From Fibrobacterota bacterium (GTDB taxonomy: Bacteria; Fibrobacterota; Fibrobacteria; UBA11236), in NCBI GenBank assembly GCA_043753995.1, contig JAYUVP010000208.1, positions 1 to 19,662 on the forward strand: DNA of 19,662 nt. The letters run 5' to 3'. The translations under genes and the position numbers were made by a program. Within the stretch, counting starts at the first letter, position 1, and every line of letters begins with the position of its first letter. Below the pieces are notes generated by a model. It was not told the origin of the DNA. It searched no databases and worked only from the letters and a program-made list of their open reading frames with translations. Shown here piece by piece: positions 2-16,764 of the stretch.

Positions 2-1945
2 TCCGATATCATAGCCGCCATCAATCTCAAGATTGTAGGTCCACTTTTGGTGCATGGGAACCCATTTTGACTGAGTCAAAACCGAGGTTCTGGTCAGGGC
101 ATTGCTGCCTTGGGCCAAATTCGAATCGGCAGCGGTAGTATCCGCATAAGGAACAAAGCCTTCAAATACGCTGAGATAATCACTGTGGAGGCCGCCTGCT
201 TCCGGACCCAAAGCCAAGGCTCCGGTTTTATATCTAAAGCTTTCGTCGCCCAATCGCCTTTTGTATTTGTCGGGAATGCTATTGTCCACCAAGTCATTAC
301 CCCAACGATTATAGCTGCTCTGGAAAAAGCTGAACTCGTCCTGACCATTTAAACGATGCGGGAAATAAATCAAATCGCGAGCCGAACTGAGTTGAAAATG
401 TTGACCATAGGTAATGCGAAAATGCCCATAACCCGGATTCGGAGTCCAGCTCAAATTCAAGCCCGCCATATTGCGGGCATAGGGAGATCCTTCACCGCGA
501 GCAATGAATTTTCCTGCTCCTACCAAATTAGAGCCAAAGGGATAAAAAGCATCCATGGGAGCAACAAAGGACATGGGAGAATAAAAGTCTTTGCTGATAT
601 AGGCGATATCGGCTCGGAAAGGGACAACTCCCTGATGCTTAACACTTACAAAAAGGGCTGGAGAAAAATCACTGCGTGCAACGCTGTCTTTAAAGCCAGG
701 CAGAAACCGATTGAGGGTCGCTCCTGAAGTGTCTTTGTGGGTCGTATCGATATTCCGGTAAAACACCCCCCAAGTGGTATCTACAATGGACGCACCGATG
801 TCGACATGCAGGGCCCAATTCTCATTGATCTCCCCTTTCAAATCCAGAGATGCTATACGTGGCTCTTTATAGAAATCTCGTCCGTTGAGTATGGTGACAC
901 GCTGACCCGTCAAAGGATCGAGTACGGACTGAGGGGGATTGAAAGGGAAAGAATTCCGCAAAGTGGTGTTTTGCAAATAATCACTGCTGGTGTGAAACCA
1001 ATTCAAGTTGAAGCCCATGGTGAGTCCAGGACCGATTTTTTCCTTGGCCAAACGCAGGTGAAATAGATGTCTATAGCTGTCGCCTATGCCGCGGCCTTTG
1101 GCTTCTGTGGTTTGGTCGGTATAACCGATATCTCCGGAAAAATCCACGTATTCGCGCTCGAAATTGTCATAGCGTTCAAAAGTCGCATACATCAGATTCA
1201 AATAGAGGTCAGCAGGTAGTTGAATGCTTTCAAGTTGTATGCCATTCAGGGCCTTTTTATTCCAAGCTGCGCGACCTGATTTTTCGCCCTTGGCGATATT
1301 GTATTCGTAATAACGGCCAATGGGTTGCTCAACTTCAAAGGGCAAATAATCCCAGGCAAAATTACGAGGCTGAGCCTTCCATACCGTGAGTGGCGAAGCT
1401 TCGGTCCACAACACATTGCCCATGCGCAGCCAAGCCGAAGCCGTATTCGTGCGAATAGCCATGCCTGCCGACATGTCTTCGTGAATATTGGCCGTTTCTT
1501 CCATTTTATCGTGACGGGTTTGCTGTCTCTCATAGCCTTGAGCTTGAGGGAAGTCCGTATCAATATTGGGCGATTCGGCGTATTGATTAGTGAAATTGCC
1601 GGGCAAGGTATGCTGAAAACCGATTTTCGCCCAAAGGACCGAATTGCGATTGGGTCGAACGACCATGCCCAAACGGAGCAGGCTTTCATTGCCCTCAAAA
1701 TTCGCATTGGTATAGGTGCGATCCTTCCGCATATACTCCGGGGCACTGTATAAATAATGCTCTTGGATTTTCAGGCGAGCTTCGCCCGCAAAGGAAACCG
1801 GGCTGCTACCCCCATACATCAAGGTCGACCGGACATGGGTTTCCAAGGACTCGAATTGGTCATTGGATATACCGAGCGAGTCCGAATTATCGGCTTGGGC
1901 CGCGAGGGCGGCAAGGCAAAGCAGGAATGCGGTTTGAGTCACCAT
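2..1945 (-). CDS. Exported protein, probable outer-membrane beta-barrel (partial, 3' end beyond the left edge; >=648 aa)
   Basis: Not in the ORF track. I read the minus frame codon by codon from ATG 1945 to base 2 and found no stop; an in-frame TGA lies just upstream (1949-1951). N-terminus MVTQTAFLLCLAALAAQA|DNSDS resembles a Sec/SPI signal peptide. Many alternating amphipathic strands: LRLGMVVRP, VLWAKIGFQH, LYLNLMYAT, LTMGFNLNWFH, WALHVDIGAS, FRADIAYIS, GLNLSWTP, HFRITYGQH, WTYNLEIDGGYDI. The CDS is secure; the barrel call is inference. Confidence 0.85.
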   Translation of the reverse strand, partial: MVTQTAFLLCLAALAAQADNSDSLGISNDQFESLETHVRSTLMYGGSSPVSFAGEARLKIQEHYLYSAPEYMRKDRTYTNANFEGNESLLRLGMVVRPNRNSVLWAKIGFQHTLPGNFTNQYAESPNIDTDFPQAQGYERQQTRHDKMEETANIHEDMSAGMAIRTNTASAWLRMGNVLWTEASPLTVWKAQPRNFAWDYLPFEVEQPIGRYYEYNIAKGEKSGRAAWNKKALNGIQLESIQLPADLYLNLMYATFERYDNFEREYVDFSGDIGYTDQTTEAKGRGIGDSYRHLFHLRLAKEKIGPGLTMGFNLNWFHTSSDYLQNTTLRNSFPFNPPQSVLDPLTGQRVTILNGRDFYKEPRIASLDLKGEINENWALHVDIGASIVDTTWGVFYRNIDTTHKDTSGATLNRFLPGFKDSVARSDFSPALFVSVKHQGVVPFRADIAYISKDFYSPMSFVAPMDAFYPFGSNLVGAGKFIARGEGSPYARNMAGLNLSWTPNPGYGHFRITYGQHFQLSSARDLIYFPHRLNGQDEFSFFQSSYNRWGNDLVDNSIPDKYKRRLGDESFRYKTGALALGPEAGGLHSDYLSVFEGFVPYADTTAADSNLAQGSNALTRTSVLTQSKWVPMHQKWTYNLEIDGGYDIG

Positions 1946-2027
1946 GTATCATTCTTTGGGACAAAACTGTCTTGTGCTGTGCTTGGTACCGTTTTCACGG
2001 CCTCGCGTTCAACGAATTGAGAAAGCA

Positions 2028-3902
2028 TTAATCCTTGACGGCACCGGCTGTAAGGCCAGAAACGATTTGTTTTTGCATCAGGAAAAACAGGAACATGACC
2101 GGCAAGGTAGATACCGTGGCTGCGGCCATCATTAAGTCATAGCGATTCTGGAAATTACCGACGAAGAGTCGTATGCCCACCGGTATGGTATAGGTCTTTT
2201 CGGAAGTAAGAACCCAGGCAAACATAAGTTCATCCCAGGCCGACAAAAAGACATAAACGCCGGTGGCGACAATGCCTGGCATGGCCGAGGGGACAATGAT
2301 GCGAAAAAAAGCCTTGAATGGACCGCAGCCATCGATTAGGGCCGCCTCTTCCAATTCCTTGGGAATGGAGGCAAAGAAACCCCGCAAAATCCAAATCGAG
2401 AAAGGCACGAAATAGGCCGCATAGGTCAAAATGAGTCCGAGATAGGTGCCCTTAATCACGAGCCCTGAGTGCTTGGCGATATTGACATACATCAAATAAA
2501 TCGGGAGGAGGAGCATGATGCCCGGAATCATTTGCGTGGCTAAAACCGAATAGCCAAAAGTGCTGCGACCGGGGAAATCATAGCGCGCCAGAGCGTACCC
2601 GCCCAAGGATGCCAGGACCATGGCAATAATCATGACGCTACCGCAAACGATAAAACTGTTGAACAAATAGCGCCCAAAGTCGATATAGCGCCAGAGGTCT
2701 ACAAAATTTCGCCACTGGAAATAAAAGGGGGGCTTCGGCAGGGAGAAAAAGGCTTGCTGCTTGCCGTCCTGTGCGGTCAAAGCTAAGGCTCCTCGCGTCC
2801 CCCCCGCTAAAACGGTCCCGTCCGCAAGAGCCAGTAAGGTCGTGGTTTCTGCGCCCGTCACATCAGTATTGTCCTCATCATATTCCGCACCCGTATAGGA
2901 AGGATGACGGGTCTGCCCCACGGTGCAAGCGGACCTGGAGGAATCCATCTCAATCGAAATGACGGCCTGGGAATTGCCAACCCAAATTCGATTGGCATCC
3001 GAGCTGCCAATAGGGGGAATCCCAAGCGCGGAAACAACGCTGGTGCCTAATCCTTCTTCTTCGCCCATCGAACAAGCGACACTGTCGCCATCACGATGAT
3101 ATATCAATACGGTTTTGCCCCGCAGGAAAGCCGAATAGGATCCTTTCAAATCGGCAAAACGAGAAATATCACCCGGAATTAGAGCTGGGGAAGGCATGAC
3201 CTTGGCCATGGCAGAACTTTGCATGGCGAAACGGTAATAGCCTTTGGATGTCAGCAAGCTCAAGGTGTCCCCTGCCCCACCCGACATTTGCCGTATGGCG
3301 CCTATTTGAGCCGTAGCCAGCGGTGTTACCGGCACAAAGATTTTATGCTGCGGGGAAAAACGCAAAACACCGGGGAAATCCACGAACAAATAGGCAAGAT
3401 AAAGGTCACCTTGCACCCTTACCAGGCTGGATGCCGCGACATCATTTACCCACAGGGTTTTCCAAGTATTTCCGTAAGCCTTGGCCATGGCCTCCACGGG
3501 ATAGTCCGCAATCACCTCAAGATTACTCGTCGACATGGCTTGTAAACCGCGATTGCTCGACAGGACCCACAGGGTGTCGCCTTGAAGGCTATAACTGGTA
3601 GCGAAAGTGCCTAGGTCCGCATGCTTTTTGAGCGCCAAATGCGGGTCGAGAAGATTCACTCCGCCGTCTTGAGTGCCCACCAAAAAACCGCCCGGCAAGG
3701 CTTCAGCGAAGGTCACGTCATTGTGACGTCTTCCCGGCATTACCGCACCGGAAAGGATTTCATTATTGTCTTTGAAGCTGCAATACACCATCCAAGCGAT
3801 GGGGACGAGATTGCCCAGCACCAGGAAAAAGGTCAAGGTGGTGAGGAAATTGGCCCCTAGGGCACGGCGCAAAGCGAGGCTCATGCTTTTCTTGTCTCTC
3901 AA
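2028..3902 (-). CDS. Carbohydrate ABC transporter permease (MalG-like) with a large extracytoplasmic beta-propeller-like insert
   Basis: TM1 LTFFLVLGNLVPIAWMVYCSFK, then a ~335-aa soluble insert, then a typical MalG core (NFVDLW..FGRYLFNS, GYALARYDFPGR), EAA loop ELEEAALIDGCGPFKAFFRIIVP and end GLTAGAVKD. The TTG start overlaps the upstream stop (TTGA); an alternative ATG is at 3884. Confidence 0.93.
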   Translation of the reverse strand: MRDKKSMSLALRRALGANFLTTLTFFLVLGNLVPIAWMVYCSFKDNNEILSGAVMPGRRHNDVTFAEALPGGFLVGTQDGGVNLLDPHLALKKHADLGTFATSYSLQGDTLWVLSSNRGLQAMSTSNLEVIADYPVEAMAKAYGNTWKTLWVNDVAASSLVRVQGDLYLAYLFVDFPGVLRFSPQHKIFVPVTPLATAQIGAIRQMSGGAGDTLSLLTSKGYYRFAMQSSAMAKVMPSPALIPGDISRFADLKGSYSAFLRGKTVLIYHRDGDSVACSMGEEEGLGTSVVSALGIPPIGSSDANRIWVGNSQAVISIEMDSSRSACTVGQTRHPSYTGAEYDEDNTDVTGAETTTLLALADGTVLAGGTRGALALTAQDGKQQAFFSLPKPPFYFQWRNFVDLWRYIDFGRYLFNSFIVCGSVMIIAMVLASLGGYALARYDFPGRSTFGYSVLATQMIPGIMLLLPIYLMYVNIAKHSGLVIKGTYLGLILTYAAYFVPFSIWILRGFFASIPKELEEAALIDGCGPFKAFFRIIVPSAMPGIVATGVYVFLSAWDELMFAWVLTSEKTYTIPVGIRLFVGNFQNRYDLMMAAATVSTLPVMFLFFLMQKQIVSGLTAGAVKD

Positions 3903-4831
3903 CGCGCCGACAGGCTATCCTTGAACGCCCGATACCACACGAATACCACGGTCACCATGCCCAGCATGAGCAGGGAAGACATGGCCGCGCCACTGCCGAA
4001 ATCCCACATTTGAAAACTGTTGCGAAAAATATTGGTCATGAGCAAGTCGCCGTTCTTTCCGGGAAAGCCCGCGCCATTGCCGAACATCATGATCACGATA
4101 TTGAAACTATAGACGTTGAAAATCAGGCCATGCAAAATCAAAATGGCCCAAACCGGCTTGAGTAAAGGCCAGGTGATATTCCGAAAGCTTTGCCACGGGC
4201 TCGCGCCGTCTATATGGGCGGCCTCATAAACATCCTTGGAAATGCCCTGTAAGCCAGCAAGCAGCATCAGCATGGAAAAAGGCCATTGCCGCCAAATCGT
4301 GGGGATGATGATGGCCCAAATGGTATTCGGTCCGATGAGCCAAACGGGTTTTTCGTCCATCAGATGCAGCCAATCCACCAAAATGATATTGACCAGGCCT
4401 ACGTCTTTTTGCCAAAGGAAACCCCATAGCAAGCCCACCACATAAGTCGGAACTATCCATGGAAAAAGCATCAAGGTGCGCACCACGGAGCGGCCCCGGA
4501 AATCGCGATTGACGAGCAGGGCTGCGGCCATGCCGACAATCAAGGTCCCCACCGTGACCGCGACGGTGTATTCTATGGTATTGCGCAAAGCGTCCCAAAG
4601 CCCCGAACGCATGGGGCTGTCTGTATTGAAAAGAACATTGCGATAATTTTCCAGGCCCGCGAAGGGTGCCGCGAGATAGTCGAGAAGCTTGTCCTTGCGG
4701 CTGCGAAGGAAACCAAGATAAAGGCCTTGGCCGATGGGCAATATTTGCAGCACCAACATGCCGAGCACGGTGGGCAGCAAAAACAGGTAGGCGACCCGGT
4801 GCTTGCGCAGCGTATAAAAGAGCTTGGTCAT
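3899..4831 (-). CDS. Carbohydrate ABC transporter permease (MalF/UgpA-like)
   Basis: AYLFLLP N-terminus, FAGLENY, multiple TM helices, EAA loop DVYEAAHIDGASPWQSFRNITWPLLKP, DFGSGAAMS. Confidence 0.95.
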   Translation of the reverse strand: MTKLFYTLRKHRVAYLFLLPTVLGMLVLQILPIGQGLYLGFLRSRKDKLLDYLAAPFAGLENYRNVLFNTDSPMRSGLWDALRNTIEYTVAVTVGTLIVGMAAALLVNRDFRGRSVVRTLMLFPWIVPTYVVGLLWGFLWQKDVGLVNIILVDWLHLMDEKPVWLIGPNTIWAIIIPTIWRQWPFSMLMLLAGLQGISKDVYEAAHIDGASPWQSFRNITWPLLKPVWAILILHGLIFNVYSFNIVIMMFGNGAGFPGKNGDLLMTNIFRNSFQMWDFGSGAAMSSLLMLGMVTVVFVWYRAFKDSLSAR

Positions 4832-4832
4832 G

Positions 4833-4868
4833 AAAAAAAAGGTCGTGAGGTGTACGCCGTCACATCAC
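4833..4868 (-). terminator. Weak stem-loop plus T8 tract between the binding-protein gene and the first permease (possible partial terminator or mRNA stabiliser)
   Basis: Minus strand reads GTGA-T-GTG-acggcgta-CAC-C-TCAC-gacc-TTTTTTTT-c-ATG: a 7-bp stem with one mismatch and a U-run 4 nt later. Confidence 0.3.
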
Positions 4869-6328
4869 TCAGCAGGAACCGCCGCCACGCGTTTTTCGAG
4901 CAAGGCTCGGTGTTCCGGGTGATTTTGGAAATGCTGGGCTATCACGGCGTCGATTTCCTTTACCATGGCTTCGACTTCAGTTTTCACAGCGGCTTCGCTA
5001 TAAGGGCCATTCACCTCGGCCGCAATGTCGAGGAGATTTCCAAGGCGCTTGGTGAGTATGGAGGTTTCGATTTCACCCCAATACGGCACACTGGGATATA
5101 CGCGGCCATATTGCACGATGTCCTTGAAGACCGAGCGCTTCTCGTCTTGGGTGAACCAGGGATCTTCGAAGGCGGTTTTCAGCGCGGGTAAGAAACCAGA
5201 AATGCGGCTATAGGCCATTTGCTGCGCAGTTTCAGCCGTGAGGTATCGGATCAATTCCTTGGCTAAAGCAGCTTGGGTCGAGCTTTTGAAAACGGCCAAT
5301 TGCGATGCACCCATGAATACCGCGCGGCTCTTGGGACCGGCTGCGGGCACCAAAACTCCGTAATTTCGCGCCACTGGAGAATTGCCTATGCCGCCCTGCT
5401 CCGGGGGCAAATTCAAATAAATGTTTTTGGTGGTGGTTTCGAAAAGAGTTGCCAAACGGCCAGCATCGAATTCCGAGGAAATTTGCGCGGTATTCTTTTC
5501 CAAATTGGTTTTGGCATTAAGCCCCCGACGCACCATGTCGAGGAAAAACGTGATGCCCTGAATGGCTTCTGGACTCCCCAAGGCGCATTGGGTGCCCGCG
5601 GGATTCAGAAAATCACCGCCATTGCCCCAAATCCAAGGGGCGAAATTATGCACCACATTCCAGTCATTTTTACCGGGAAAGCCCACCGGCGCCACCACGT
5701 CCCCATTGTGCTTTATCTTGGCGGCTTTGATTTTTTCCAAAGCGGCGATATAGTCGCCCCAAGTATTCAGAGATTTGGGGTCGACCTTGGCTTTGGCGAA
5801 AACATCGCTACGATAATACATGGGGCGCACATCGAGAAACCATGGCAAGGACGTCGCATGCTCCGATGCGCGCGGAATAATGGCTTCATAAAGATTGGGC
5901 AAAAACACATTCTTGGCATCGACATCCTTAGCAAGGTCATCAATGGGCAATAAGGCGCCGAGATCGGTGATGGAAGAAACCCAGGTGATTCCCAATTGCA
6001 CCACGTCGGGACCGTCGCCAGCGATGGCGGCGGTGGTGATTTTGGTCCAGGCACTGGACCAATCCAAAACCGATACGGTCACCTTGAGTCCAGAATGCGC
6101 CTTGCGAAAGCCCGTGAGAAGGGTATCCATGTCATCTTGGGGCTTGGGCGTATTCGGCATGACCCAAATTTTCAATTCTTGTGGGCCAGGTGCCGAGGCG
6201 GCGGCGGTATCGCCCTCTTGCTTATTCGCTTTTTGGCATCCCGTGAATCCCAGGATGGCGAACAAGCTGGCGGCTAGGATTCCGAAAAACGGACACGCGC
6301 CCAAACGATTTATTTTGAAATGCATCAT
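4865..6328 (-). CDS. Sugar ABC transporter solute-binding lipoprotein (family 1, oligosaccharide type)
   Basis: Signal peptide with lipobox LGFTG|C, Ala/Pro-rich linker, LKIWVMPN, VLDWSSAWTKITTAAIAGDGPDVVQLGITWV, SLPWFLDVRPMYYRSDVF, TWGDY, GKNDWNVVHNFAPWIWGNGG. AGGA lies upstream of the ATG. Confidence 0.93.
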   Translation of the reverse strand: MMHFKINRLGACPFFGILAASLFAILGFTGCQKANKQEGDTAAASAPGPQELKIWVMPNTPKPQDDMDTLLTGFRKAHSGLKVTVSVLDWSSAWTKITTAAIAGDGPDVVQLGITWVSSITDLGALLPIDDLAKDVDAKNVFLPNLYEAIIPRASEHATSLPWFLDVRPMYYRSDVFAKAKVDPKSLNTWGDYIAALEKIKAAKIKHNGDVVAPVGFPGKNDWNVVHNFAPWIWGNGGDFLNPAGTQCALGSPEAIQGITFFLDMVRRGLNAKTNLEKNTAQISSEFDAGRLATLFETTTKNIYLNLPPEQGGIGNSPVARNYGVLVPAAGPKSRAVFMGASQLAVFKSSTQAALAKELIRYLTAETAQQMAYSRISGFLPALKTAFEDPWFTQDEKRSVFKDIVQYGRVYPSVPYWGEIETSILTKRLGNLLDIAAEVNGPYSEAAVKTEVEAMVKEIDAVIAQHFQNHPEHRALLEKRVAAVPAE

Positions 6329-6375
6329 GGTTCTAATTCCTGAAATGGCTTATTACTCAGCGAAAAAGCCGTGCT

Positions 6376-7437
6376 TCAATCGATGAAAAAGTGAAGGTGT
6401 TCGACCGCCGGGGACAGTTTCACGCGATCGCCGCGTTTAACCAATTGCGTCGGATCGATGCGAGCCACTAAGCGATGTTCGCCGGTTCGGCAATAAACCA
6501 TGGTCTCGGCTCCCAAGGGCTCGACTATTTCGATTTCAGCCGCCAAACCTTCGGCTTCTGAACCCAGGACTCGAATATGCTCGGGCCTTGTGCCCAAGGT
6601 TTTCACCGCGGATCCAAAGCGGGGACGGGATTCGACCTGGGAAATGCCGATACCCAAGGAACCTTGTGCTCCCGGAATGGAAAGCTTTCCATCGTCGATT
6701 CGCAAGGGAAGAAAGTTCATGGGGGGCATGCCGATAAAACCAGCCACGAAGTGATTGGCAGGTTGGTGATACAGGTCCAAAGGCGTGCCCAATTGCTGAA
6801 TGACTCCGTCCTTCATGCAACAGATGCGATGCCCCATGGTCATGGCCTCGGTTTGATCATGCGTGACATAAATCATAGTGGTTTGCAGGTCAGCGGAAAG
6901 GCGCGAAATTTCCACTCGCATTTGCACGCGCATTTTGGCGTCGAGATTGGATAGCGGTTCATCGAAAAGAAACACCTTAGGCTTGCGGACAATTGCTCGG
7001 CCCAAGGCCACGCGCTGCCTTTGCCCACCGGACAAAGCTTTGGGCTTGCGCTTGAGATAAGGCGTGAGCCCGAGCAACTCAGCAGCCTCATTCACTCGTT
7101 TTTGAATTTCTTGGCTTGCAACTTTGCGCAACTTGAGACCGAAAGCCAGATTTTCCTCTACGCTCATATGAGGATAAAGCGCGTAATTCTGGAAGACCAT
7201 GGCAATATCGCGGTCCTTGGGCGCGACGTCATTGCATCGGCGATCGCCGATGAGCAATTCTCCGCTCGAAATTTCTTCAAGGCCGGCAATCATGCGCAGC
7301 AAGGTGGACTTGCCGCAACCCGAAGGCCCGACGAGTACCATAAATTCGCGATCAGTGATTTTCAGCGAGAGGTTGTCGACAGCTGTAACGTTCCCGTCAT
7401 AGACCTTGACGATGTTTTTGAGGGTGACCTCGGCCAC
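6376..7437 (-). CDS. Sugar ABC transporter ATP-binding subunit (MalK/MsmK/UgpC family)
   Basis: Walker A GPSGCGKST, Q-loop VFQNYALYPHM, signature LSGGQRQR, Walker B FLFDEPLSNLD, H-loop YVTHDQ, C-terminal TOBE-like EIVEPLGAET. Start moved from the track's 7587 to GTG 7437 (VAEVTLKNIVKVY matches the usual family N-terminus); ATG 7455 is also possible. Confidence 0.96.
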   Translation of the reverse strand: MAEVTLKNIVKVYDGNVTAVDNLSLKITDREFMVLVGPSGCGKSTLLRMIAGLEEISSGELLIGDRRCNDVAPKDRDIAMVFQNYALYPHMSVEENLAFGLKLRKVASQEIQKRVNEAAELLGLTPYLKRKPKALSGGQRQRVALGRAIVRKPKVFLFDEPLSNLDAKMRVQMRVEISRLSADLQTTMIYVTHDQTEAMTMGHRICCMKDGVIQQLGTPLDLYHQPANHFVAGFIGMPPMNFLPLRIDDGKLSIPGAQGSLGIGISQVESRPRFGSAVKTLGTRPEHIRVLGSEAEGLAAEIEIVEPLGAETMVYCRTGEHRLVARIDPTQLVKRGDRVKLSPAVEHLHFFID

Positions 7438-7720: not shown

Positions 7721-9520
7721 ATGCTGAAGCTTGCCCGAAATCTGCTTTTGTTTTGTGCCGCCCTGCCTTTTACCACCCTAGCCGCGACCATTCAAGCCAG
7801 ACCGCTTTGCGCCACGGCGAACTTTATGCGGACGGTCAATCTATCTCTCGGACAAGGCCCCGACGCCGTAAAAGCCAGGGCAGAATTGGCTGCCTCCGCT
7901 CGACGCGCCAAGGTACAAGCCACCAAGGCCAGGGCACGAACCTGGGTTACGCCTCATTTCACAATTCGATATGCCTTATTCGGTATCCATCAGGCGAAAA
8001 GAGGTGCCGCCGATAGTGTCCTGCTTCAGCGAATCGCCGAGGCCCAAAAAGCAACAGCCACCCTCACCGGAGACAATCGCGAAGCCGCCATATACCGATT
8101 CCTCGACAGCCTTCAAGCCCCCCACCCTGTTTATGTGCAAGAGGTTGGGCAAATTTTCGAAGACGCAAGGGCCTATTATGTCGACACTTTGAAAATGCGG
8201 ACACCTCAAGGGATTTCGCATTCCTTGGCCTTTGACGCCGAAATAGGCCCCAGCAATCACTTCTCCATCGATATCGCCGATATTGGCAGTTATGACTCAC
8301 CGAAATACAAATACGACCCCTATTATGGCCTCACCTTGCCGCCCCCAGATCTGGCCATAGTGCTTGAAAATGATTTTCTATGGAATGCGACCCTAAATTC
8401 CGACGGATCGGTTCGAGGCGATACAGTGGAAAGCCTTTTAAACGGCAGGGTTCTGCACAATTATGCCAGGGAATACGCCTTAGGTTTGCGAGTAACCATT
8501 TACCATGAATTCTATCACGCTATTCAGTTCAGCTATATCCCCAGAACAAGTTCTAGCAGCTATCACGCATGGTATGAACTATCTGCCGTAGGCATGGAAG
8601 AGCGCAAAGTTCCCGAAGCGAATGACTACTTGCAATACCTTCCCTGCCTTTTCGAGTCTCCAGGAAAATTCGGCTTATTCGCTACCGGGAGCCGATTTTG
8701 TAATCCGGAAGCGTCTTATTCCAATGCTCCCTTTCACCTCTTTTTGACCAAGGCCGTCGGGGAAAATTTCGACACCCGAATTTGGGAAAATCTCTCTAGC
8801 AATGGCGATGCTATTCAAAAGGCATTGCCCCTGTCGCTCAGTCAATTGGGTAGCTCTTTGGCAAAAACTTTTCCTGCTTATGCTGCCAATTTATTGCTTG
8901 CGGGTCAGTCTCCGAGCCCCAACCCTTTTTCCAGTGACATGCCCGAATGGCCGAGTATGGAGGCCGACAGTCTGAATCCCGATCAGCCTACCGTTTCTAT
9001 TTCTCAAACTTTGCCGCCCTTGTCCTATTTGCCTTTCAAATTGCCGGCAAACTTCAAAGCGGGCCGCATTTCGGGCCGCTTCACAGGGGATAGTTCCGCG
9101 GCCATGGTGCGTATTCACAGGGACTCTATTTTTATCGAGCCCTATGCTAATTCGCAGGCACTTTTAACTCCGCAAATGGGCGAGGGTGAAAAATGGTTGG
9201 TTTTAACCAATCTCAATCCTAATGGGAGTGAAGTCGTCAGCGTGAAAACCACGCAAATCCCTTTTTTGGCTTATCCGAATCCGCTTTCCAAGACTCAAAA
9301 TGATCGTTTACGATTTACCCAATCCAGCTTGGTCTCCTATCCCTTAAAGGTGGAAGTCGCATCAGAAATCGGTGAGGTCATTTTTTCCCAAGTCTTTGCC
9401 AGTCTCGATTCCATTTCCGACTGGACTTTGAAGGATTTAAAAAAGCAGGCCGTCAAACCAGGAATTTATCACCTGCGAGTTAACCAAAAACCCTGGGAAA
9501 CTCTCGTGCTCTTGCCTTAA
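7721..9520 (+). CDS. Secreted putative zinc metallopeptidase (HExxH, gluzincin-like) with a YPNP-type C-terminal domain
   Basis: Signal peptide MLKLARNLLLFCAALPFTTLA and GGAG upstream. IYHEFYHAIQFSY (HExxH at 8504-8518) is followed by AWYELSAVGMEE (candidate third Zn ligand). The C-terminal ~85 aa AYPNPLSK...VKPGIYHLRV resembles T9SS type A/FlgD-like tails. From memory the motif pattern resembles the MXAN_6640 family (unverified). Confidence 0.8.
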   Translation: MLKLARNLLLFCAALPFTTLAATIQARPLCATANFMRTVNLSLGQGPDAVKARAELAASARRAKVQATKARARTWVTPHFTIRYALFGIHQAKRGAADSVLLQRIAEAQKATATLTGDNREAAIYRFLDSLQAPHPVYVQEVGQIFEDARAYYVDTLKMRTPQGISHSLAFDAEIGPSNHFSIDIADIGSYDSPKYKYDPYYGLTLPPPDLAIVLENDFLWNATLNSDGSVRGDTVESLLNGRVLHNYAREYALGLRVTIYHEFYHAIQFSYIPRTSSSSYHAWYELSAVGMEERKVPEANDYLQYLPCLFESPGKFGLFATGSRFCNPEASYSNAPFHLFLTKAVGENFDTRIWENLSSNGDAIQKALPLSLSQLGSSLAKTFPAYAANLLLAGQSPSPNPFSSDMPEWPSMEADSLNPDQPTVSISQTLPPLSYLPFKLPANFKAGRISGRFTGDSSAAMVRIHRDSIFIEPYANSQALLTPQMGEGEKWLVLTNLNPNGSEVVSVKTTQIPFLAYPNPLSKTQNDRLRFTQSSLVSYPLKVEVASEIGEVIFSQVFASLDSISDWTLKDLKKQAVKPGIYHLRVNQKPWETLVLLP

Positions 9521-9547: not shown

Positions 9548-10042
9548 CTAGGCGAGCACCGAATTCGATTTGCGCGGAGATCTTCCATCTGGTGCGGGTC
9601 GAAGAGGGTTACCAACCGATGGCGGTTTCACTTGAGGTGGATTCGCCTTCAATTGCTTTTGGGCGGCCAAATAAACTTCCATTTCGCGCCGCCAGGCTTT
9701 AACACCCTGATGCCTATGCAAGGCCAGGCGACGGGCCTTGAGGTTCCGCAAGGCTCGCTGGGTGTTCATGCGAAAAACCAAGGCTCGCGTCACTTCCTGT
9801 TGCGTTAAGTTGCCATTATTGGACAGCCGATTCGGTCTTTGTGTGGAAACCATTTCCAAATTCAAAGGACTAGGTGTTGAAGTCCCCTGGTGCGGCGCGG
9901 CAACAGGTTCAACCACGACCATGGGAAATTCAAAGCGCTTGAGATTTGTCCCATAGGCAAAAACCGAAGAAATGGGAATCACTCCAACCAGAGCTATGGG
10001 TAATGCCCAGGAGCAATTTTTTATCCATGGCGGGAAAAACAT
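9548..10042 (-). CDS. Hypothetical exported, basic, Pro-rich protein
   Basis: GAGG Shine-Dalgarno upstream (gagttgaggatgtcATG), hydrophobic N-terminus ending SVFA|Y, Arg/Lys-rich helical middle. It fills the gap up to the convergent peptidase gene. Confidence 0.65.
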   Translation of the reverse strand: MFFPPWIKNCSWALPIALVGVIPISSVFAYGTNLKRFEFPMVVVEPVAAPHQGTSTPSPLNLEMVSTQRPNRLSNNGNLTQQEVTRALVFRMNTQRALRNLKARRLALHRHQGVKAWRREMEVYLAAQKQLKANPPQVKPPSVGNPLRPAPDGRSPRKSNSVLA

Positions 10043-10277: not shown

Positions 10278-12077
10278 CTAAACGCGGTTGGGCTTATAGT
10301 CTTCTTTGTGAATGCCTAACCTATCCATAATGTCGCGCAAGACCTTGCGATCAATGCCCAGAAATGAGGCCGCCAAAGTCAAATTGCCACGTGCCTTGGT
10401 CATGGCGGTTTGAATCGCATGCATTTCGGCCTGCTCTCGTACCGCCTTGAGCGAAATCAATTCCGGCGCTTCATCTAAAGGCAAATCCAAGGTTTCAGCG
10501 TCAATCACGCGTGAGCTCGAATTCAGCAAGGCTTTTTGGATTTTGTTTTCCAATTCGCGCACATTTCCCGGCCAATGATATTTGAGCAAGGCCTTCTCCG
10601 CCGACTTAGTCAGGGCTGCCAAATTCATATTGAAGGCAGAGCATGCCTTTTTCAGGATGTGATTGGCTAGGAGTAGAACATCCCCTTCGCGATCTCGCAG
10701 TGGAGGCAAATGCAATTGGAAAAGGTTGAGCCGATAAAACAAATCCTCGCGGAATCGGCCTTCCCTCACTTCGTATTCAAGATTGTGATGCGTCGCTGCG
10801 ATGATCCGCACGTCTACGGGAACATCTTCATGCCCACCGATGCGGCGAATGCGGGCGCTTTGAAGTGCTCGCAAAAACTTCACCTGCATGAGCAAGGGCA
10901 ATTCGCCCACCTCATCCAGAAATAGGGTGCCGCCATCGGCTTGTTCGAATAACCCTTTTTTCAAGCCCGTCGTACCAGCGATGGCACCGCGCTCATGTCC
11001 GAAAAGCTCACTCTCAATGAGATGCTCGGGCATGGCCCCGCAGTTCACGGAAATGAAGGGTCCCGTCGACCGGGTACTGCGTTTGTGTATGGTATTGGCC
11101 AATACATCCTTGCCCGTGCCGCTTTCCCCCAGAATGAGAACAGGGACATGGCTGGTGGCGACCCGCGCCGCGGCCTCAACCACCTTGACCATTTGCGGCG
11201 AGGAATAAATCAAGTCACCGCTGCCTTTGACATCTTTCAGGGAGCGTATCTGCTCTTCTTGGCGCAAGTGCTGTTGATTGATTCCCAAAATGGCGCCAAG
11301 CACTCGCTCAATGCGTTCGAAAAGACGGCGTTGAGCTTCAGTGAATGCGTTTTCGCTGCGACGGCGATGCAAGTAAACCAGGCCGCCAATTTTGCCGGTA
11401 TAGCGGTTCTTCAGGGGAGAGACAAGAATACTGTGGATGTTTTTGTGTTGAAGCGATTGCAGGCTTGAACCCGTTAATTCGTCGCTCACCGACCAAAGCA
11501 CGGTTTCATTGCCTTGCATGGCCGCCTTTACCGCCGAATGCGAGTAGAGGTCATTGTCTTCAGGTACCGAATGCAAGAGACGCAGTCCACCCAATTCATC
11601 GACGGTGAAAAGAAACCCGCCATCGGCTTCGATTAATTGCATGCCCAATTCAAGTATGTCTTCCGTGGACTTGCGCTTATCGGGGTTTTCCAAAAGACGG
11701 ATCACGCCTTCCAACAAGGCCTCGACAGCCGTGTCCTGTGGGACCTCGCCTCCTCCCGTTTTCGAAGGAGCGTCTGCCTTGGTCAAAACCGCCGCATCAG
11801 GGGGAGGTTCGGGGGTATCTACCCGATAGATTTCCGATCCGATATGAATGCGATCCCCTTGCCCTAAGGCCAATTCCGAGACGGGAGAGCCGTTGACTTC
11901 CACCGTTCCGTTCAGGGCGATAAGGCGATAGATTCCGCCCTGCTTCAGAATTTGAAAATGAATCTTCCGCACTTGATCGCCGCGAACGACCAAATTGTTG
12001 ATCGAACCGCTGCCGACCGTAAAAACTGCCGTGGAAAGCCCATGGCTTTCGCCGGTTTGCTCATGGATGAGGTTCAG
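10278..12077 (-). CDS. NtrC/Fis-family AAA+ enhancer-binding protein, FHA-GAF-AAA-HTH, with non-canonical GAFTGA loop
   Basis: FHA-like N-terminus (FTVGSG...IHFQI...VNG...LGQGDRIHIG), GAF-like region (ADGGFLF...SILVSPL...GGLVYLH), Walker A GESGTGKD, ESELFGHERGAIAGT, Walker B LFLDEV, RFREDLFYRLN, WPGNVRELEN, Fis-type HTH GNLTLAASFLGIDRKVL. Start uncertain: CTG 12077 (perfect SD) or TTG 12134 (track). Confidence 0.93.
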   Translation of the reverse strand: MNLIHEQTGESHGLSTAVFTVGSGSINNLVVRGDQVRKIHFQILKQGGIYRLIALNGTVEVNGSPVSELALGQGDRIHIGSEIYRVDTPEPPPDAAVLTKADAPSKTGGGEVPQDTAVEALLEGVIRLLENPDKRKSTEDILELGMQLIEADGGFLFTVDELGGLRLLHSVPEDNDLYSHSAVKAAMQGNETVLWSVSDELTGSSLQSLQHKNIHSILVSPLKNRYTGKIGGLVYLHRRRSENAFTEAQRRLFERIERVLGAILGINQQHLRQEEQIRSLKDVKGSGDLIYSSPQMVKVVEAAARVATSHVPVLILGESGTGKDVLANTIHKRSTRSTGPFISVNCGAMPEHLIESELFGHERGAIAGTTGLKKGLFEQADGGTLFLDEVGELPLLMQVKFLRALQSARIRRIGGHEDVPVDVRIIAATHHNLEYEVREGRFREDLFYRLNLFQLHLPPLRDREGDVLLLANHILKKACSAFNMNLAALTKSAEKALLKYHWPGNVRELENKIQKALLNSSSRVIDAETLDLPLDEAPELISLKAVREQAEMHAIQTAMTKARGNLTLAASFLGIDRKVLRDIMDRLGIHKEDYKPNRV

Positions 12078-13572
12078 AGGACCGTCCCTCCTTCTCGAAC
12101 TGAAAAACCGTCGGCTCGCCAGGCACAACGGCAATGGAATCTGACATCACGTGCCGCTTGCGATTATCGCGGATCTCCAACATATATCGGTCTTCAGGCA
12201 GTTGTATGGGTTTGCGAGAGCGGTATTCGGAACCATTTACCCAATAAGTGTATCCGCGCGGCAATCCTTCGACCACTAGCACGCCATAAGCCCTTGAAGT
12301 TGGCCCAACATTCGCAGTCGAACGCGCCGACTCGGTCCCTAAGCCATCCGGATCGTTTTTGAGCTGTTCATTTTGCCTTTCCATCAGGCTTTGACCGAGG
12401 TCCTCTACAAAGCCGACATGACTAATGCTGCGATAGAGGGTGAGTATGAAAACCAAAGAAAGTACACCCATGGCTATGGCCATTTTGTGCCGAGTAGAAA
12501 AGAGCATCCGTCTCTGAGTCTCGGCGAGAGAGCGAGTATCCATTCTCTCATTCAAACGCGTTCCCAGCTCAATCAAGCTTGCCTGGGCCTCCTCGTCCTC
12601 GGGAATAAGGTCGAGCAATTCCTTGGCAAGGGCAAAAGCAGCTTCGATGCGCCCTTCTTGGCGAGCCCTTACCACTTCACTCCATAGCCATTGCCGATGA
12701 TCTCTCAATAAATAGGGCTGCAAGGCCATGCCGGTTTGCAGCATATCGGCTCCTAATACTTCGCTCTCGGCATGAATGGCCTCTAGCAACCCGTGCAAGG
12801 AGGCCGGCCTTTCTTGAGGGTCTTGCCGAAGACAATCGCGAATCGGCTGGCGCATGGCCGGAGGCAGGGCCTCAAAGGATTCGGGGGGTGGGCCCGCTTG
12901 AATGCGTGATAAAACTTCATTCGCAGATCCGCCCCCAAGGAGGCGCTTTTGAGCAAAAATTTCGAGCAATACCAAGGCTAGGGCATAGTATTCACTGCGT
13001 GGAGTATAGGGTGCCTGCCCACGCAAAAGCTCGGGCGCAATATAAGCCAAGGTGCCACGCAAGGTCGCCCCTTGGGGATCGGTCATCATGGTGGGATTGG
13101 CTCGCGCCAGGCCCAAGTCAAGCAGCTTCACCCGTCCCTGGCGATCCACCATCACATTTTCAGGCTTGATGTCACGATGGACCACATCGCTATTGTGCAA
13201 GAAATTCATTACCTCGACCAGTTGCCGCGCCAAATTGAGTTTGAAAGGGAGTGGCAAAGGAGGAATGCCGACCAGGGGTTGCAATAATTTGCCAAAGTCC
13301 AGGCCATTCACATATTCCATCACAATGCACCAGTACGAGCCTTCTTGCCCGTAATCGAAAACCTGTACCAAGCTTGGGTGTTTGAGAGACGCACTGAGCC
13401 GGGCTTCGCCGCCGAAGCGCTGAATGGCCCCGGAATTCACCAAGGCGGCATATTTCAAACGCTTGATGGCCACCAGCCTATCCAGGCTGTTTTGCTTGGC
13501 GCGAAAAACTTCGGCTTCGCCGCCTTCGGCTACCAATACCCAGTCGCGAAAATCAATGGATGAAAAAGCCAT
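12061..13572 (-). CDS. Membrane-anchored Hanks-type Ser/Thr protein kinase with C-terminal PEGA-like domain
   Basis: AEGGEAEVF (Gly loop), VAIKRL, HRDIKPEN, DLG, GTLAYIAPE, DPQERP. These are followed by a TPR-like helical hairpin, TM helix MAIAMGVLSLVFILTLY and PEGA-like YGVLVVEGLPRGYTYWVNG...LPEDRYMLEI. Start moved to ATG 13572, 2 nt after the TPR gene stop. Confidence 0.93.
   Translation of the reverse strand: MAFSSIDFRDWVLVAEGGEAEVFRAKQNSLDRLVAIKRLKYAALVNSGAIQRFGGEARLSASLKHPSLVQVFDYGQEGSYWCIVMEYVNGLDFGKLLQPLVGIPPLPLPFKLNLARQLVEVMNFLHNSDVVHRDIKPENVMVDRQGRVKLLDLGLARANPTMMTDPQGATLRGTLAYIAPELLRGQAPYTPRSEYYALALVLLEIFAQKRLLGGGSANEVLSRIQAGPPPESFEALPPAMRQPIRDCLRQDPQERPASLHGLLEAIHAESEVLGADMLQTGMALQPYLLRDHRQWLWSEVVRARQEGRIEAAFALAKELLDLIPEDEEAQASLIELGTRLNERMDTRSLAETQRRMLFSTRHKMAIAMGVLSLVFILTLYRSISHVGFVEDLGQSLMERQNEQLKNDPDGLGTESARSTANVGPTSRAYGVLVVEGLPRGYTYWVNGSEYRSRKPIQLPEDRYMLEIRDNRKRHVMSDSIAVVPGEPTVFQFEKEGRSSEPHP
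12087..12093 (-). promoter_or_regulatory. Shine-Dalgarno AAGGAGG inside the kinase 3' end, 9 nt before an in-frame CTG of the regulator
   Basis: Minus strand reads gagAAGGAGGgacggtcctCTGaacctcatc. Confidence 0.5.
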
Positions 13573-13574
13573 GA

Positions 13575-14273
13575 TTATGGAGCGGTGATTTTCTTCACAG
13601 CCGCACCCATACGAGACATCAAGGCTCCATTCCCCGGCGAGCGGCCCAAACCCTGTTTCCAAGTGACAAGTGCCGCCTCAGCATCCCCTGACTCCCAAAG
13701 AACATTGCCCAAATTCAGGTAGGCGCTGATGAAGTCGGGATCAATGGCGAGCAAATACTCCAAAGTTTGCTGAGCCTCGTGATAATCACCCAAGCGATAG
13801 GCCACAATGCCGGCGAGATTGAGAACATATTTGTTGCGAGGCTCAATGACACGTGCGACTTTCAAATAGTCGCGCGCCTGTGAAAATCGCTGCTTTTGAT
13901 AAAGCTTATTACTGAGATGAAATAAAGCAAAAGCCTGATTGGGTGCCTGAGAAGGAGCCGAGCCGAGCTTGGTGGAAATTTCATAGGCCCGAACGACTTC
14001 CAGCCAATCTCCCACCTGATCTTGACCCAAAGCTTTTTTATGAAGACATAGCTCCTGCTCAGCGAGGGCAAAACCGTAGCGCGCGTCAAAATCAACGGGA
14101 TCCTTGTCAATGGCCTTTTCGAAATAAGCCTTGGCACGCACAAAATCACCGATGCGATAGCATTCGCGAGCCATTTTCATTTCATTGCTACAAGCGGTTA
14201 AACCGATGACAATGGTCAAAACGCCACCCCATACCGCGGCGCGCCCGACCCTTTGCTTCAGCAATTCCAGCAT
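13575..14273 (-). CDS. TPR-repeat lipoprotein
   Basis: Lipobox GLTA|C. TPR patterns: GDFVRAKAYFEKAIDKDP, AGIVAYRLGDYHEAQQTLEYLLAIDP, AYLNLGNVLWESGDAEAALVTWKQGLGRSP. AGGGG upstream. Confidence 0.9.
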   Translation of the reverse strand: MLELLKQRVGRAAVWGGVLTIVIGLTACSNEMKMARECYRIGDFVRAKAYFEKAIDKDPVDFDARYGFALAEQELCLHKKALGQDQVGDWLEVVRAYEISTKLGSAPSQAPNQAFALFHLSNKLYQKQRFSQARDYLKVARVIEPRNKYVLNLAGIVAYRLGDYHEAQQTLEYLLAIDPDFISAYLNLGNVLWESGDAEAALVTWKQGLGRSPGNGALMSRMGAAVKKITAP

Positions 14274-14335: not shown

Positions 14336-16618
14336 CTAGGCCCCCAGCAACTCCTTGATCCGCTGTTGGGAGCTGCGAACCTTGTCCATTTCCAAATCCT
14401 CACACAGTCTATCGAGATTCCCCTGAATTTCGGTAAAATGCATAAGAAGTTGTCGATCGAGATCGGCCCCAGACCGCTCAATCACCTCTTTGATTTCTTT
14501 CATATAACCACGCTCGCATCCCAAAAACCAACCTGGCCTCAAAGGATGGTTCCGCAAGGTTGGGATGATCACCGCGCTACGCCCCAGCTTGACACGAAAA
14601 CTTACCCGTCTCGCATACCAATTGGCTTGGGTTTCTTCATCCATGCTGCGCAGAAAGTGCCGGCTAGCCACGGGATCGCGACCCGGAATTTGGCCGGTTT
14701 TTGCCAAACAAACCGCCAGAAAAGCCGAATAGGCGGTAAAGGGATCCCCCACCGGAGCAGGTCCTCGCCCAGCCTTGACTGACTTCTCTTGCAATAAAGC
14801 CTGCTCTTCGAGTCCCATGACCCCCATGAGCAAACCCAATCCGGCTTCGTCCAGTGCCGACTCATCGCCCCAAAGTTGGGTTTGAAATCCCTGGCCTTCG
14901 CCTTCTTGCCCCATGGTTTGGGCCGGATGCTCGATGCGATCACGATAACGAAACTGGACATTTTCCAATTTTCCGCGAAAACCGTAAATCGCGCAGATGA
15001 GCGACTCAAGCGATGCCAAATACACGGCATCCCCTGAATTCAAAGCGGATTGAACGGAAATTCCCGTGGCCGACGACAAGCCAAGACGAGCGAAGAAATC
15101 ATCGCCTTGCACAAGCCGGGAGAGGCGTCCAATACAACGGCTCCCACCCGGAGTGAGGCCATAAGAAAGGCAGGTATCCAGCGATCTCACCTTGGCGATT
15201 TGCGCCACCATGGATTTGAATACCGGAGACTTGGCCGTTAGCTTGCGTCGCACGGTTTGCAAGGTGGCGTCCCACTCCTCTAGGACTTCGCGCGAAAACT
15301 CCTCGGCCTTGGGCTTGACCAAAACGTCGCTACTGTCCGCGGAGGCTTCGGGGGCTTGCTTCGCCGTCTCGACCTTTTCGTCCGGCGAAGGCATGGCGGC
15401 ATATTGACCGGTTTGTAAGTCCTGGGCCAATTTGCTCGCGCGTTGAATGGCCTCCATATAATCAAAGCGAGCCTGTTTGCGCTCGGCACTCACGCGAGCT
15501 GCGGAGCGTCGCTCGCCTTGAAGCAAACCATTGAAATGATTGAGCAAGACTTGGATTTGATAATCCTTATGCTGATCCTGCTTTTGAATGCGATAAATCA
15601 GAGCATCCGAAAGCGTATTCAAGGTCTTGTCCATTTGGCTTGGGGCCGTCACCAAGCGGGCGCCCCCGGCTGCCACCATTTCCAAGGCCGAGTAGCGACC
15701 GCCCGGCAGGTTATAGCCTTCTGCGCAAAGGCTATCTGGCATGAGCAAGGTCAATTCCGACCCGAATATCCCCACGCTTTGCAGCCATTCCAGCAAATCA
15801 TCGTGATAAAGTCCGCCCTCTTCGAGCACCAATTCACGCAAAAGGGTCAAGGTGGGGTTGGATACACTGCGATTGAAAAGCACCGAACGTGCGCCTAGAA
15901 ATACGTCCATGGGGCTGACCTGGAATTCAAGTCGGCCTTCGGAGGATTGATTGAAACGCACCGCCAATTCCGTGACCTGTATCAAGGTGGTGACACTTAA
16001 TGCAGGCACGTCCTGGACATTGCCCATCAGGGGTAGGCGGGCGGCGCGACCCACCAAGCGAGTCAAATCGGCGAGACCCCGCAAGGTGGCGGGATCATTA
16101 TGCTGTAGCAGGGCTTGAAAGCATTCCACACGATAGGGATCAAAATGCTCCCCGCTTTTTCTGGAATACGCGGCCCGACGCCAAAGTGCGTGTAAGGCAC
16201 CCCGTTCCGATGCCGTGACATAGGTCGAACCTGTTTGATCAAGATCGGCCGCCAGACGCATGAGCCCGAGATAGGAGCCCAATTCATAGTCCGACTTGGT
16301 TTTTTTCAATTGCACTTCGACTTCAGCGAGGAATTGATAGGACGGAGGTTGCCCTATTACGCCCATTTGCGGCTTGCGATATTGCAAAAACTTATAGATG
16401 TCATCATCCAGGCGGCGCCATGGATCGAAATCCTCATGGCCGCCCATTAAATAGTCGGGCTCCGCCCCGAGCCTATCCAGGGAACGATGACGAAAACGCG
16501 GTCCGGTTGCCATGCCCGCTTCTAGCGGTTCTAGCCGGCCGGGACGGGCGACTTCCTGCCGGGATTGCACCACCACCTGCCGGATGATGTCTTGAGTCTC
16601 CCTGACGCCGATAGCCAC
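14336..16618 (-). CDS. Large hypothetical cytoplasmic protein (~760 aa)
   Basis: Long uninterrupted ORF. GAGGAG lies 6 nt before GTG 16618, which I prefer to the track's 16669. No signal peptide or clear TM helix; largely helical appearance with an acidic linker (PSPDEKVETAKQAPEASADSSD). No family recognised. Confidence 0.85.
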   Translation of the reverse strand: MAIGVRETQDIIRQVVVQSRQEVARPGRLEPLEAGMATGPRFRHRSLDRLGAEPDYLMGGHEDFDPWRRLDDDIYKFLQYRKPQMGVIGQPPSYQFLAEVEVQLKKTKSDYELGSYLGLMRLAADLDQTGSTYVTASERGALHALWRRAAYSRKSGEHFDPYRVECFQALLQHNDPATLRGLADLTRLVGRAARLPLMGNVQDVPALSVTTLIQVTELAVRFNQSSEGRLEFQVSPMDVFLGARSVLFNRSVSNPTLTLLRELVLEEGGLYHDDLLEWLQSVGIFGSELTLLMPDSLCAEGYNLPGGRYSALEMVAAGGARLVTAPSQMDKTLNTLSDALIYRIQKQDQHKDYQIQVLLNHFNGLLQGERRSAARVSAERKQARFDYMEAIQRASKLAQDLQTGQYAAMPSPDEKVETAKQAPEASADSSDVLVKPKAEEFSREVLEEWDATLQTVRRKLTAKSPVFKSMVAQIAKVRSLDTCLSYGLTPGGSRCIGRLSRLVQGDDFFARLGLSSATGISVQSALNSGDAVYLASLESLICAIYGFRGKLENVQFRYRDRIEHPAQTMGQEGEGQGFQTQLWGDESALDEAGLGLLMGVMGLEEQALLQEKSVKAGRGPAPVGDPFTAYSAFLAVCLAKTGQIPGRDPVASRHFLRSMDEETQANWYARRVSFRVKLGRSAVIIPTLRNHPLRPGWFLGCERGYMKEIKEVIERSGADLDRQLLMHFTEIQGNLDRLCEDLEMDKVRSSQQRIKELLGA

Positions 16619-16646
16619 GTAAATCTCCTCAAAAGACGACGAGGCA

Positions 16647-16764
16647 CCCCCAGGGGGCCCCCGGGCCACTCCAACAGGATAGGCCTAGCCTATCTGGAAG
16701 ATAATTCCTAAGGACCTTACCTCGCCAGGCGGAACCCAAACCCTGCAGGGAATGGCTAGCTTTG
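16647..16764. promoter_or_regulatory. Divergent intergenic region with clustered inverted repeats
   Basis: GGGGGCCCCC (16653-16662), GATAGGC-cta-GCCTATC (16678-16694), CCCTGCAGGG (16741-16750), TAGCTTTG (16757-16764). Confidence 0.35.

Follow-up and report, generated by a model that had tools for sequence, protein, structure and literature searches.

Through which outer-membrane protein might the breakdown products of cellulose reach the inner-membrane importers of Fibrobacterota? The question is raised by a 19,662-nucleotide stretch of DNA from a Fibrobacterota bacterium (assembly GCA_043753995.1, contig JAYUVP010000208.1; hereafter the window), in which a MalK-type ATPase, a substrate-binding protein (SBP), a MalF-like permease, a MalG-like permease and a large exported protein, here named B1, are encoded in this order by five genes on the minus strand, with intergenic gaps of 47, 33, 14 and 82 nt. 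For Fibrobacter, cellodextrin transport was called unknown and no MalA-like barrel was found in PMC6851124. In the present analysis B1 is predicted to be a large plug-less outer-membrane barrel, accompanied by a second barrel (B2) and a CBM30 protein, and we lean towards a cellodextrin uptake route in which B1 and B2 would be the outer-membrane entry channel of a CbpB-type ATP-binding cassette (ABC) importer.

The importer has the components of a CUT1 system, namely an SBP_bac_1 protein, two BPD_transp_1 permeases with the EAA loop and a MalK ATPase with a TOBE domain, the ATPase scoring 490 bits with the UgpC model of NCBIfam and 428 bits with the MalK model. A consensus scan, the only method applied to such sites, listed no terminator-like site between 2028 and 1945 and 6 promoter-like sites against 7.4 expected by chance. 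A first-pass annotation made from the letters of the window alone had described the five co-oriented genes and the 82-nt gap before the barrel gene, and all of them lie where it placed them. Base 1 of the window is also base 1 of its contig (C208), and the open reading frame (ORF) of B1 is cut after 648 aa. Most of the remainder of this ORF, whose recovery that annotation had called for, was located on another contig of the same genome (G000), on which the final 133 aa with the barrel-type C-terminus EIKMWF are encoded (C40:3-404), about 12 residues between the two pieces being unassembled. On C40, B1 is followed on the same strand by the second large gene, B2 (C40:417-2420), and by the beginning of a third, Cel51A-like gene that continues on contig C312. 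We infer the junction of C208 and C40, because these contigs share no overlap; in the metagenome locus L125, on a contig of 1.14 Mb, MalK, SBP, MalF, propeller-MalG, B1, B2 and the Cel51A-like gene follow one another without a break. The second barrel and the CBM30 protein had escaped the first-pass annotation because the contig ends inside B1.

Predicted fold of the barrel proteins

The fold of B1 was modelled with 144 sequences on P0001, a full-length relative of 782 aa that is 91% identical to the window protein; B1 relatives in general measure 750–950 aa. The model (pLDDT 88.3, pTM 0.87) shows 22 long strands, the first starting at residue 43 and the last reaching the C-terminal Phe, with short turns and long loops in alternation. 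Loops 3, 4, 7 and 8 (49, 36, 42 and 117 aa in P0001) are long, outward and ordered in the model and bear conserved aromatic residues, and loops 3 and 7, in which many Trp, Tyr and charged residues are almost invariant, equal the strands in conservation. Only the signal peptide and a single conserved helix precede strand 1, leaving no space for a plug domain, which takes about 130–150 aa with a TonB box. Structural alignments to TonB receptors start at receptor residues 134–289, that is, behind the plug, and receptor or plug profiles had no match in 20 B1 proteins (E up to 0.1). PF00593 matched 7 places in the genome, none of them on C208 or C40, and SusD was absent among the families found in a scan of 31 neighbour proteins, which were cluster representatives and not all neighbours.

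LamB has 18 strands and about 420 aa, and LamB/OprB barrels comprise 18 or 16 strands and 400–450 aa. LamB and OprB profiles did not match B1, and PF02264 had no match in the genome. The earlier description of the ORF as a barrel longer than LamB, without TonB-plug or LamB features, thus agrees with the 22-strand model and the lack of profile matches. From Pfam and NCBIfam, B1 and B2 drew only the weak generic PF13505 (9 of 72 B2 and 4 of 20 B1 proteins), and a PDB sequence search found no solved relative of either. With B1, Foldseek returned generic barrels only (query TM-score ≤0.34), and the structure search VIA gave rows tied at Z 9–13, topped by OmpM1 (Z 12.8, root-mean-square deviation (rmsd) 5.8, 247 aligned) and including the SusC barrel 5t3r (Z 12.4, rmsd 6.3, 415 aligned); because these rows are tied, no specific fold relative is assigned. 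B1 is therefore predicted, on the strength of its model, to be a large plug-less outer-membrane barrel of no named family. B2 is a distant paralogue of B1 (hhalign 95.5%, E 1.5e-8, 598 columns), and this homology, together with a barrel-type C-terminus in 50/50 listed copies, makes it a predicted outer-membrane barrel as well. When B2 was modelled in complex with the first 230 aa of the Cel51A-like protein, the score was 0.18 against a mark of 0.32, which speaks neither for nor against an interaction.

Language-model look-alikes of B1 and B2 include clusters of DUF6029 (0.95, 0.96), for which a role in the secretion of polysaccharide was suggested in PMC9603273. By this analogy B1 and B2 might export polysaccharide, as proposed for DUF6029/Wzi-type barrels in capsule or exopolysaccharide secretion, which is the least probable of the readings considered here. 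Membership in DUF6029 (PF19494) was rejected, its profile having 0 matches in the window's genome at E up to 1; the 31 neighbour proteins scanned included no OPX, Wzx/Wzy or synthase family; and the neighbours are importers and degrading enzymes.

A conserved gene core in Fibrobacterota

A genome scan with the single protein gave no match, and an alignment-based scan yielded 59 B1 loci, which are mutually related and leave out a second clade of the family. B2 follows B1 in 54/54 loci with at least 1 kb of flank, and a CBM30 protein lies downstream in all 49 loci with at least 2.5 kb. Importer parts are encoded upstream of B1 in 51 of the 59 loci (8 propeller-CUT1, 35 Opp-type, 5 other SBP1, 3 ATPases only), and in some loci a lone SBP1 stands directly before B1; 4 of the 8 loci without an importer upstream have less than 600 bases of flank. 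GH94 enzymes were found in 20 of the 59 loci, GH9 in 18, GT35 in 11 and GH1 in 5. The expectation of the first-pass annotation that barrel homologues would be linked to sugar ABC genes was borne out in these loci, and extends to glycan enzymes. Its picture of barrel, propeller and ABC importer as one fixed route did not survive, since a propeller-MalG precedes B1 in 8/59 loci and an Opp-type importer in 35. The fixed core consists of B1, B2 and the CBM30 protein, and the inner-membrane importer is exchangeable.

In a survey of 296 Fibrobacterota genomes, B1 was present in 230 and B2 in 228 (these tallies, and the propeller tallies of 45 and 17 given below, each include the unpublished genome G254, on which nothing else here depends). 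Outside family f6, CBM30 was found in 76 of 80 B1-positive genomes (80 of 83 tested), as against 6/66 B1-negative genomes, 4 of these 6 being f6 genomes of 62–87% completeness; among good assemblies only, the counts were 51/51 and 2/32. In the window's own family, GH9 accompanied B1 in 12/13 positive and 1/17 negative genomes, with a stricter threshold on the positive set. Relatives carrying source names were Fibrobacterota. Two loci labelled outside the phylum (L033, L052) nest among Fibrobacterota sequences with identical gene order, which would fit mis-binning or transfer.

An unrooted FastTree tree separated two clades, one with Cel51A downstream and the other with a stand-alone CBM30 upstream, and in family f6 the order CBM30-B1-B2-B2' was found in 10/10 loci. 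Second-clade loci also occur in the window's family (L104, L105 and L106, from G264, G252 and G253), each with a CBM30-like gene, B1, two B2 genes and an ORF of 618–651 aa; G253 has the second-clade type only and no GH9 match, which hints at another glycan.

The distribution also bears on the suggestion that B1 and B2 are structural or adhesive proteins, such as an OmpM- or SlpA-like scaffold or a cellulose-adhesion platform, without selective transport. Constitutive and abundant proteins with three tandem paralogues in f6, a conserved helix before strand 1 and OmpM1 as the top structural row, tied with unrelated barrels, would suit such a role. It is nevertheless quite improbable, as B1 is absent from 66/296 genomes, complete ones included, and its loss coincides with that of CBM30 and, within family f1, of GH9, while profile scans found no peptidoglycan-binding or SLH domains.

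Importer and probable substrate

By sequence, the nearest solved relatives of the SBP in the window are PDB 7c63–7c71 (E 1.7e-98) and CbpB, 7x0i (E 3.7e-79), and the next different solved protein follows at E 5e-20. We take 7c63 to be the beta-glucoside-binding protein of T. thermophilus, its database name being only "sugar-binding protein". In C. thermocellum the transporter of CbpB is the only importer of cellodextrins, and CbpB has a close relative in a beta-glucoside binder of T. thermophilus (PMC9601137). Because the SBP is nearest to CbpB and 7c63 by a wide margin, import of cellodextrins or beta-glucosides is likely, and so is the binding of cellodextrins by the SBP itself. Beta-glucan breakdown products are thus supported as the substrate class, in line with the polysaccharide breakdown products named by the first-pass annotation. 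The SBP5 of the Opp-type importers is nearest to the Thermotoga sugar-binding proteins 4pft, 1vr5 and 2o7i, and both importer types (SBP1 and SBP5) point, at the level of sequence, to beta-glycan oligomers. The window shares with CbpB and the T. thermophilus beta-glycoside-binding systems the nearest solved relatives of its SBP and the CUT1 layout, and differs from them in that the ATPase is in the cluster, MalG contains a propeller and outer-membrane barrels follow. An Opp-type cassette of the kind that stands before the barrels in most other lineages, its SBP nearest to Thermotoga sugar-binding proteins, is also present in the window's genome (L112:189-5682; G000:C225).

The predicted propeller of the MalG-like permease

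The large insert of the MalG-like permease, which the first-pass annotation had taken for a propeller, was modelled as such by AlphaFold2 from 13 full-length sequences, the window's own included. Residues 58–382 form 28 strands in seven four-stranded blades with pLDDT mostly 80–92, the mean of the whole MalG-like model being 64 and its membrane part poor. VIA matched the insert to WD40 propellers (Z 25.5, rmsd 3.0, 283 aligned), structure searches also returned BamB and sensor propellers, and no Pfam family was found for it. The insert sits between membrane helices 1 and 2, hydrophobic segments being located at 18–36 and from 408 on, and by MalG topology the propeller would be periplasmic. Its most conserved part is a Trp-rich insert or patch between and around blades 2–3. 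In f6, the propeller permeases (L113:6712-8886, L115:3805-5838) have about 100 additional aa inserted immediately ahead of the conserved Trp motif.

Propeller matches occurred in 45/296 genomes, 17 of them strong and 28 weak (f6). The proposed co-occurrence of barrel and propeller-MalG held in one direction, as all 17 strong-propeller genomes are B1-positive, and failed in the other, as genus g21 has the propeller in 0/101 genomes though 97/101 have B1. The six weak f6 matches that were examined are all long MalG proteins, with the cassette visible in 5 and none of the six beside barrels.

Propeller, SBP and barrel might form one physical trans-envelope conduit, and the 17/17 strong-propeller genomes with B1 would be expected from it, as would the propeller-MalG directly before B1 in 10 loci and in 5/6 metagenome loci (the sixth being cut off). 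Such a conduit is highly improbable, since most genomes with B1 lack the propeller (230 vs 45 of 296), the cassette is unlinked from the barrels in 6/6 f6 loci examined and lies about 11 kb off and divergent in G274, and a short-linker propeller at the inner membrane would hardly span the periplasm. Because the propeller is mostly absent or unlinked from B1, it is probably accessory and not a trans-envelope bridge. It is not part of the conserved core, and its likely role within the importer is an ancillary one in docking or in holding sugar, comparable to that of the P2 loop of MalF. Both are folded periplasmic domains inserted in a loop of a CUT1 permease; in E. coli MalFGK2 it is the P2 loop of MalF, whereas here the first loop of a MalG-type subunit holds a propeller of 325 aa.

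The CBM30 partner and relatives in F. succinogenes S85

The gene after B2, pieced together from C40 and C312, encodes a lipobox and the domain order CBM30-CBM30-CBM11-GH51 (CBM30 47 bits, second CBM30 25 bits with a cut-off of 27, CBM11 66 bits), which is the order of F. succinogenes S85 Cel51A (PMC6851124). GH51 structures matched the protein at E 9e-23, with the GNE and EWN motifs aligned. The Cel51A-like proteins (L110:2589-2620 and relatives) share a conserved peptide, Q/K-x-K-P-L, right behind the lipobox or signal and before a variable linker; it is kept even in forms without the Cys and is a candidate anchor. In loci L049–L052, L102 and L103 the post-B2 protein has only about 630–660 aa, too short for GH51, so that the partner probably has no more than a binding function in some lineages.

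In S85, FSU_2008 (= Fisuc_1526) is a cluster member of the f6 barrel in the B1 family and FSU_2007 is a CBM30 protein; from gene order and size, we infer that FSU_2009 and FSU_2010 (78-kDa membrane proteins) correspond to B2 and B2'. FSU_2007-2012 (Fisuc_1525-1530) thus has a B1-family barrel and a CBM30 protein in common with the window, whose post-B2 gene has the domain order of Cel51A. S85 differs in its second-clade barrel, the order CBM30-B1-B2-B2', the lack of an adjacent importer and the location of Cel51A elsewhere (FSU_0382/Fisuc_3111). Cel51A has been described as the main cellulose-binding endoglucanase of S85.

Fisuc_1526-1528 were reported in outer-membrane and extracellular fractions (PMC4668043) and in the proteome of the cell envelope on both glucose and cellulose (PMC4619616), and expression of Fisuc_1525-1528 was constitutive (mean regularised log value 11.35–11.87, coefficient of variation about 2%; Cel51A 13.5; PMC6204037). 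In the tables available from PMC4668043, PMC4619616, PMC6204037 and PMC6851124, FSU_2008-2010 appear only as "hypothetical" or "membrane" proteins with no fold or role assigned, and the available parts of PMC3079729, PMC6291624, PMC9603273, PMC12098361 and PMC6606855 likewise give the S85 barrels no fold or role. A literature search with S85 locus tags turned up only Fisuc_1525, in three main texts, preprint and subscription supplements being outside its scope. Searches of the literature from 2021 found nothing combining Fibrobacter, AlphaFold, beta-barrel and cellodextrin, and no description of the barrels was found among the papers listed by the searches. Jun et al. 2007 and Arntzen et al. 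2017, both on S85 outer-membrane proteins, may describe FSU_2009/2010, and the latter is said to report a vesicle complex from the FSU_2008 gene cluster.

Uptake or export

In the uptake route towards which we lean, the CBM30-CBM30-CBM11-GH51 lipoprotein would bind cellulose chains and cut them at or near the outer membrane. B1, with its four long, ordered, conserved and Trp/Tyr-rich outward loops, would form with B2 a sugar-selective diffusion channel, in which, with no TonB plug, flow would be driven by periplasmic steps that bind and remove the sugar. The lipoprotein SBP would capture cellodextrins and deliver them to MalF/MalG/MalK as a high-affinity ABC sink, and their degradation would fall to GH1 or GH94 enzymes, the genes of which often lie close by in relatives. 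This route is favoured mainly because two unrelated classes of sugar importer, and lone SBPs, directly precede B1.

Several observations weigh against it. Kin are not independent, and the co-occurrence counts therefore overstate the association; in f6, an importer is missing from the roughly 8 kb upstream in 9/10 loci. GH9 occurs in 28/66 B1-negative genomes, and three good g44 genomes have 10–11 GH9 matches each without B1 and CBM30, so that cellulase-rich members can do without B1. In S85 the genes were not induced (427 vs 382 RPKM, reads per kilobase per million; PMC4668043), and on cellulose FSU_2008 changed 1.11-fold and FSU_2007 was down 1.26-fold (PMC6851124). A TonB route has been proposed and favoured for Fibrobacter (PMC6851124), and the window's genome has 7 TonB-dependent receptor matches. 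Finally, the barrels are tied most tightly to the CBM30 protein and less so to the importer, an observation that suits a device for export or anchoring equally well.

As such a device, B1 and B2 would work like Slam or MtrB for the CBM30 protein (Cel51A or a stand-alone CBM30), and would adjoin the importer only since both serve cellulose use. The CBM30 neighbour is constant and co-occurs with B1 in a nearly one-to-one fashion, and the conserved N-terminal peptide of Cel51A-like proteins is also found in forms without Cys. S85 Cel51A is listed without a type IX secretion system (T9SS) signal (PMC6851124 Table 1) and has been described at the outer membrane and cellulose surface, and the constitutive expression of the barrels matches that of Cel51A (PMC6204037). 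We regard export or anchoring as the main, though unlikely, alternative: two unrelated classes of sugar-oligomer importer, or a lone SBP1, stand directly before B1, which suits a channel that feeds SBPs; the conserved loop residues of B1 are largely aromatic; the S85 Cel51A gene (Fisuc_3111) is far from the barrels (1526); and one study found Cel51A in the periplasm (PMC4668043). Import and CBM30 export or anchoring may also both hold, with one barrel for each job.

Coordinates and neighbouring genes

Table 1. Features of the putative importer and barrel operon, in window coordinates
Feature	Positions	Strand	Basis
MalK/UgpC-type ABC ATPase, 353 aa, GTG start	6376..7437	-	PF00005 (ABC_tran) E 4.8e-34, TOBE_2, OB_MalK
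Lipoprotein SBP, lipobox FTGC	4865..6328	-	SBP_bac_1
MalF-like permease, 310 aa, without large loop	3899..4831	-	PF00528; best models UgpA/MalF
MalG-like permease, 618 aa	2028..3884	-	PF00528 (BPD_transp_1) only at residues 429-609 (last ~190 aa)
Predicted seven-bladed propeller, ~325 aa, within the MalG-like permease	2742..3716	-	AlphaFold2, structure search
82-nt gap between permease and barrel genes	1946..2027	-	Consensus scan: no terminator-like site listed
B1, N-terminal 648 aa of a predicted 22-strand barrel of roughly 790 aa, signal peptide, plug-less	2..1945	-	

Beyond the operon, a TPR protein, a Ser/Thr kinase and an FHA-GAF-sigma54 activator are encoded in tandem at 10278-14273 (-). 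Their homologues adjoin a stand-alone CbpB-like SBP, with no permeases near, in g21 loci L122 and L123, and these genes are possibly a conserved sugar-sensing module. At 7721-9520 (+), divergent from the operon, lies a gene for an HExxH protein like MXAN_6640 (73 bits, below the cut-off) with a weak T9SS-type tail; a 598-aa ORF occupies the equivalent position in L125. No Pfam or NCBIfam family was found for the proteins encoded at 14336-16669 (-, 777 aa), 9548-10042 (-, 164 aa) and 19086-19631 (-, 181 aa, lipoprotein-like).

Comparison with known uptake systems and significance

With the LamB-MalEFGK2, CymA-CymEFG and chitoporin systems the locus shares a plug-less barrel encoded with a CUT1 oligosaccharide importer and energy supplied at the inner membrane only; it differs in that its barrels, which come as sets of two or three paralogues with a constant CBM30 partner, have no sequence match to LamB/OprB, in that B1 is predicted to form 22 strands from about 780 aa, and in that the importer class varies. 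With the SusC/SusD loci of Bacteroidota it shares a 22-strand barrel, a glycan-binding lipoprotein that follows and glycan enzymes nearby, and differs in having no plug, no match to a TonB-receptor profile, a CBM30 protein instead of SusD and an ABC importer. Judged from profiles and models, the system appears to resemble a sugar porin with an ABC importer or a SusCD locus, and to belong to none of the TonB-receptor, LamB/OprB and DUF6029 families. It could tentatively represent a third type of machinery for capturing glycans, with no relation to SusCD or cellulosomes, in which a plug-less hetero-oligomer of B1, B2 and, where present, B2', capped by the CBM30 protein, would thread cellulose chains or long cellodextrins across the outer membrane and feed whichever ABC importer the lineage has.

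The B1/B2 family has no profile and no solved relative, and the propeller-bearing permease is a second architecture for which no published description was found, literature searches having returned no MalG permease with a beta-propeller. Fibrobacter and its relatives are major cellulose digesters in the rumen, the termite gut and sediments, and the locus names specific candidates that are tied by gene order to a cellodextrin-type importer and Cel51A. These candidates map onto FSU_2008-2010, already detected in S85 membrane fractions, which makes the question testable with purified proteins. If the third type of machinery is real, it would supply the step at the outer membrane that is still missing from the picture of cellulose digestion by Fibrobacter.

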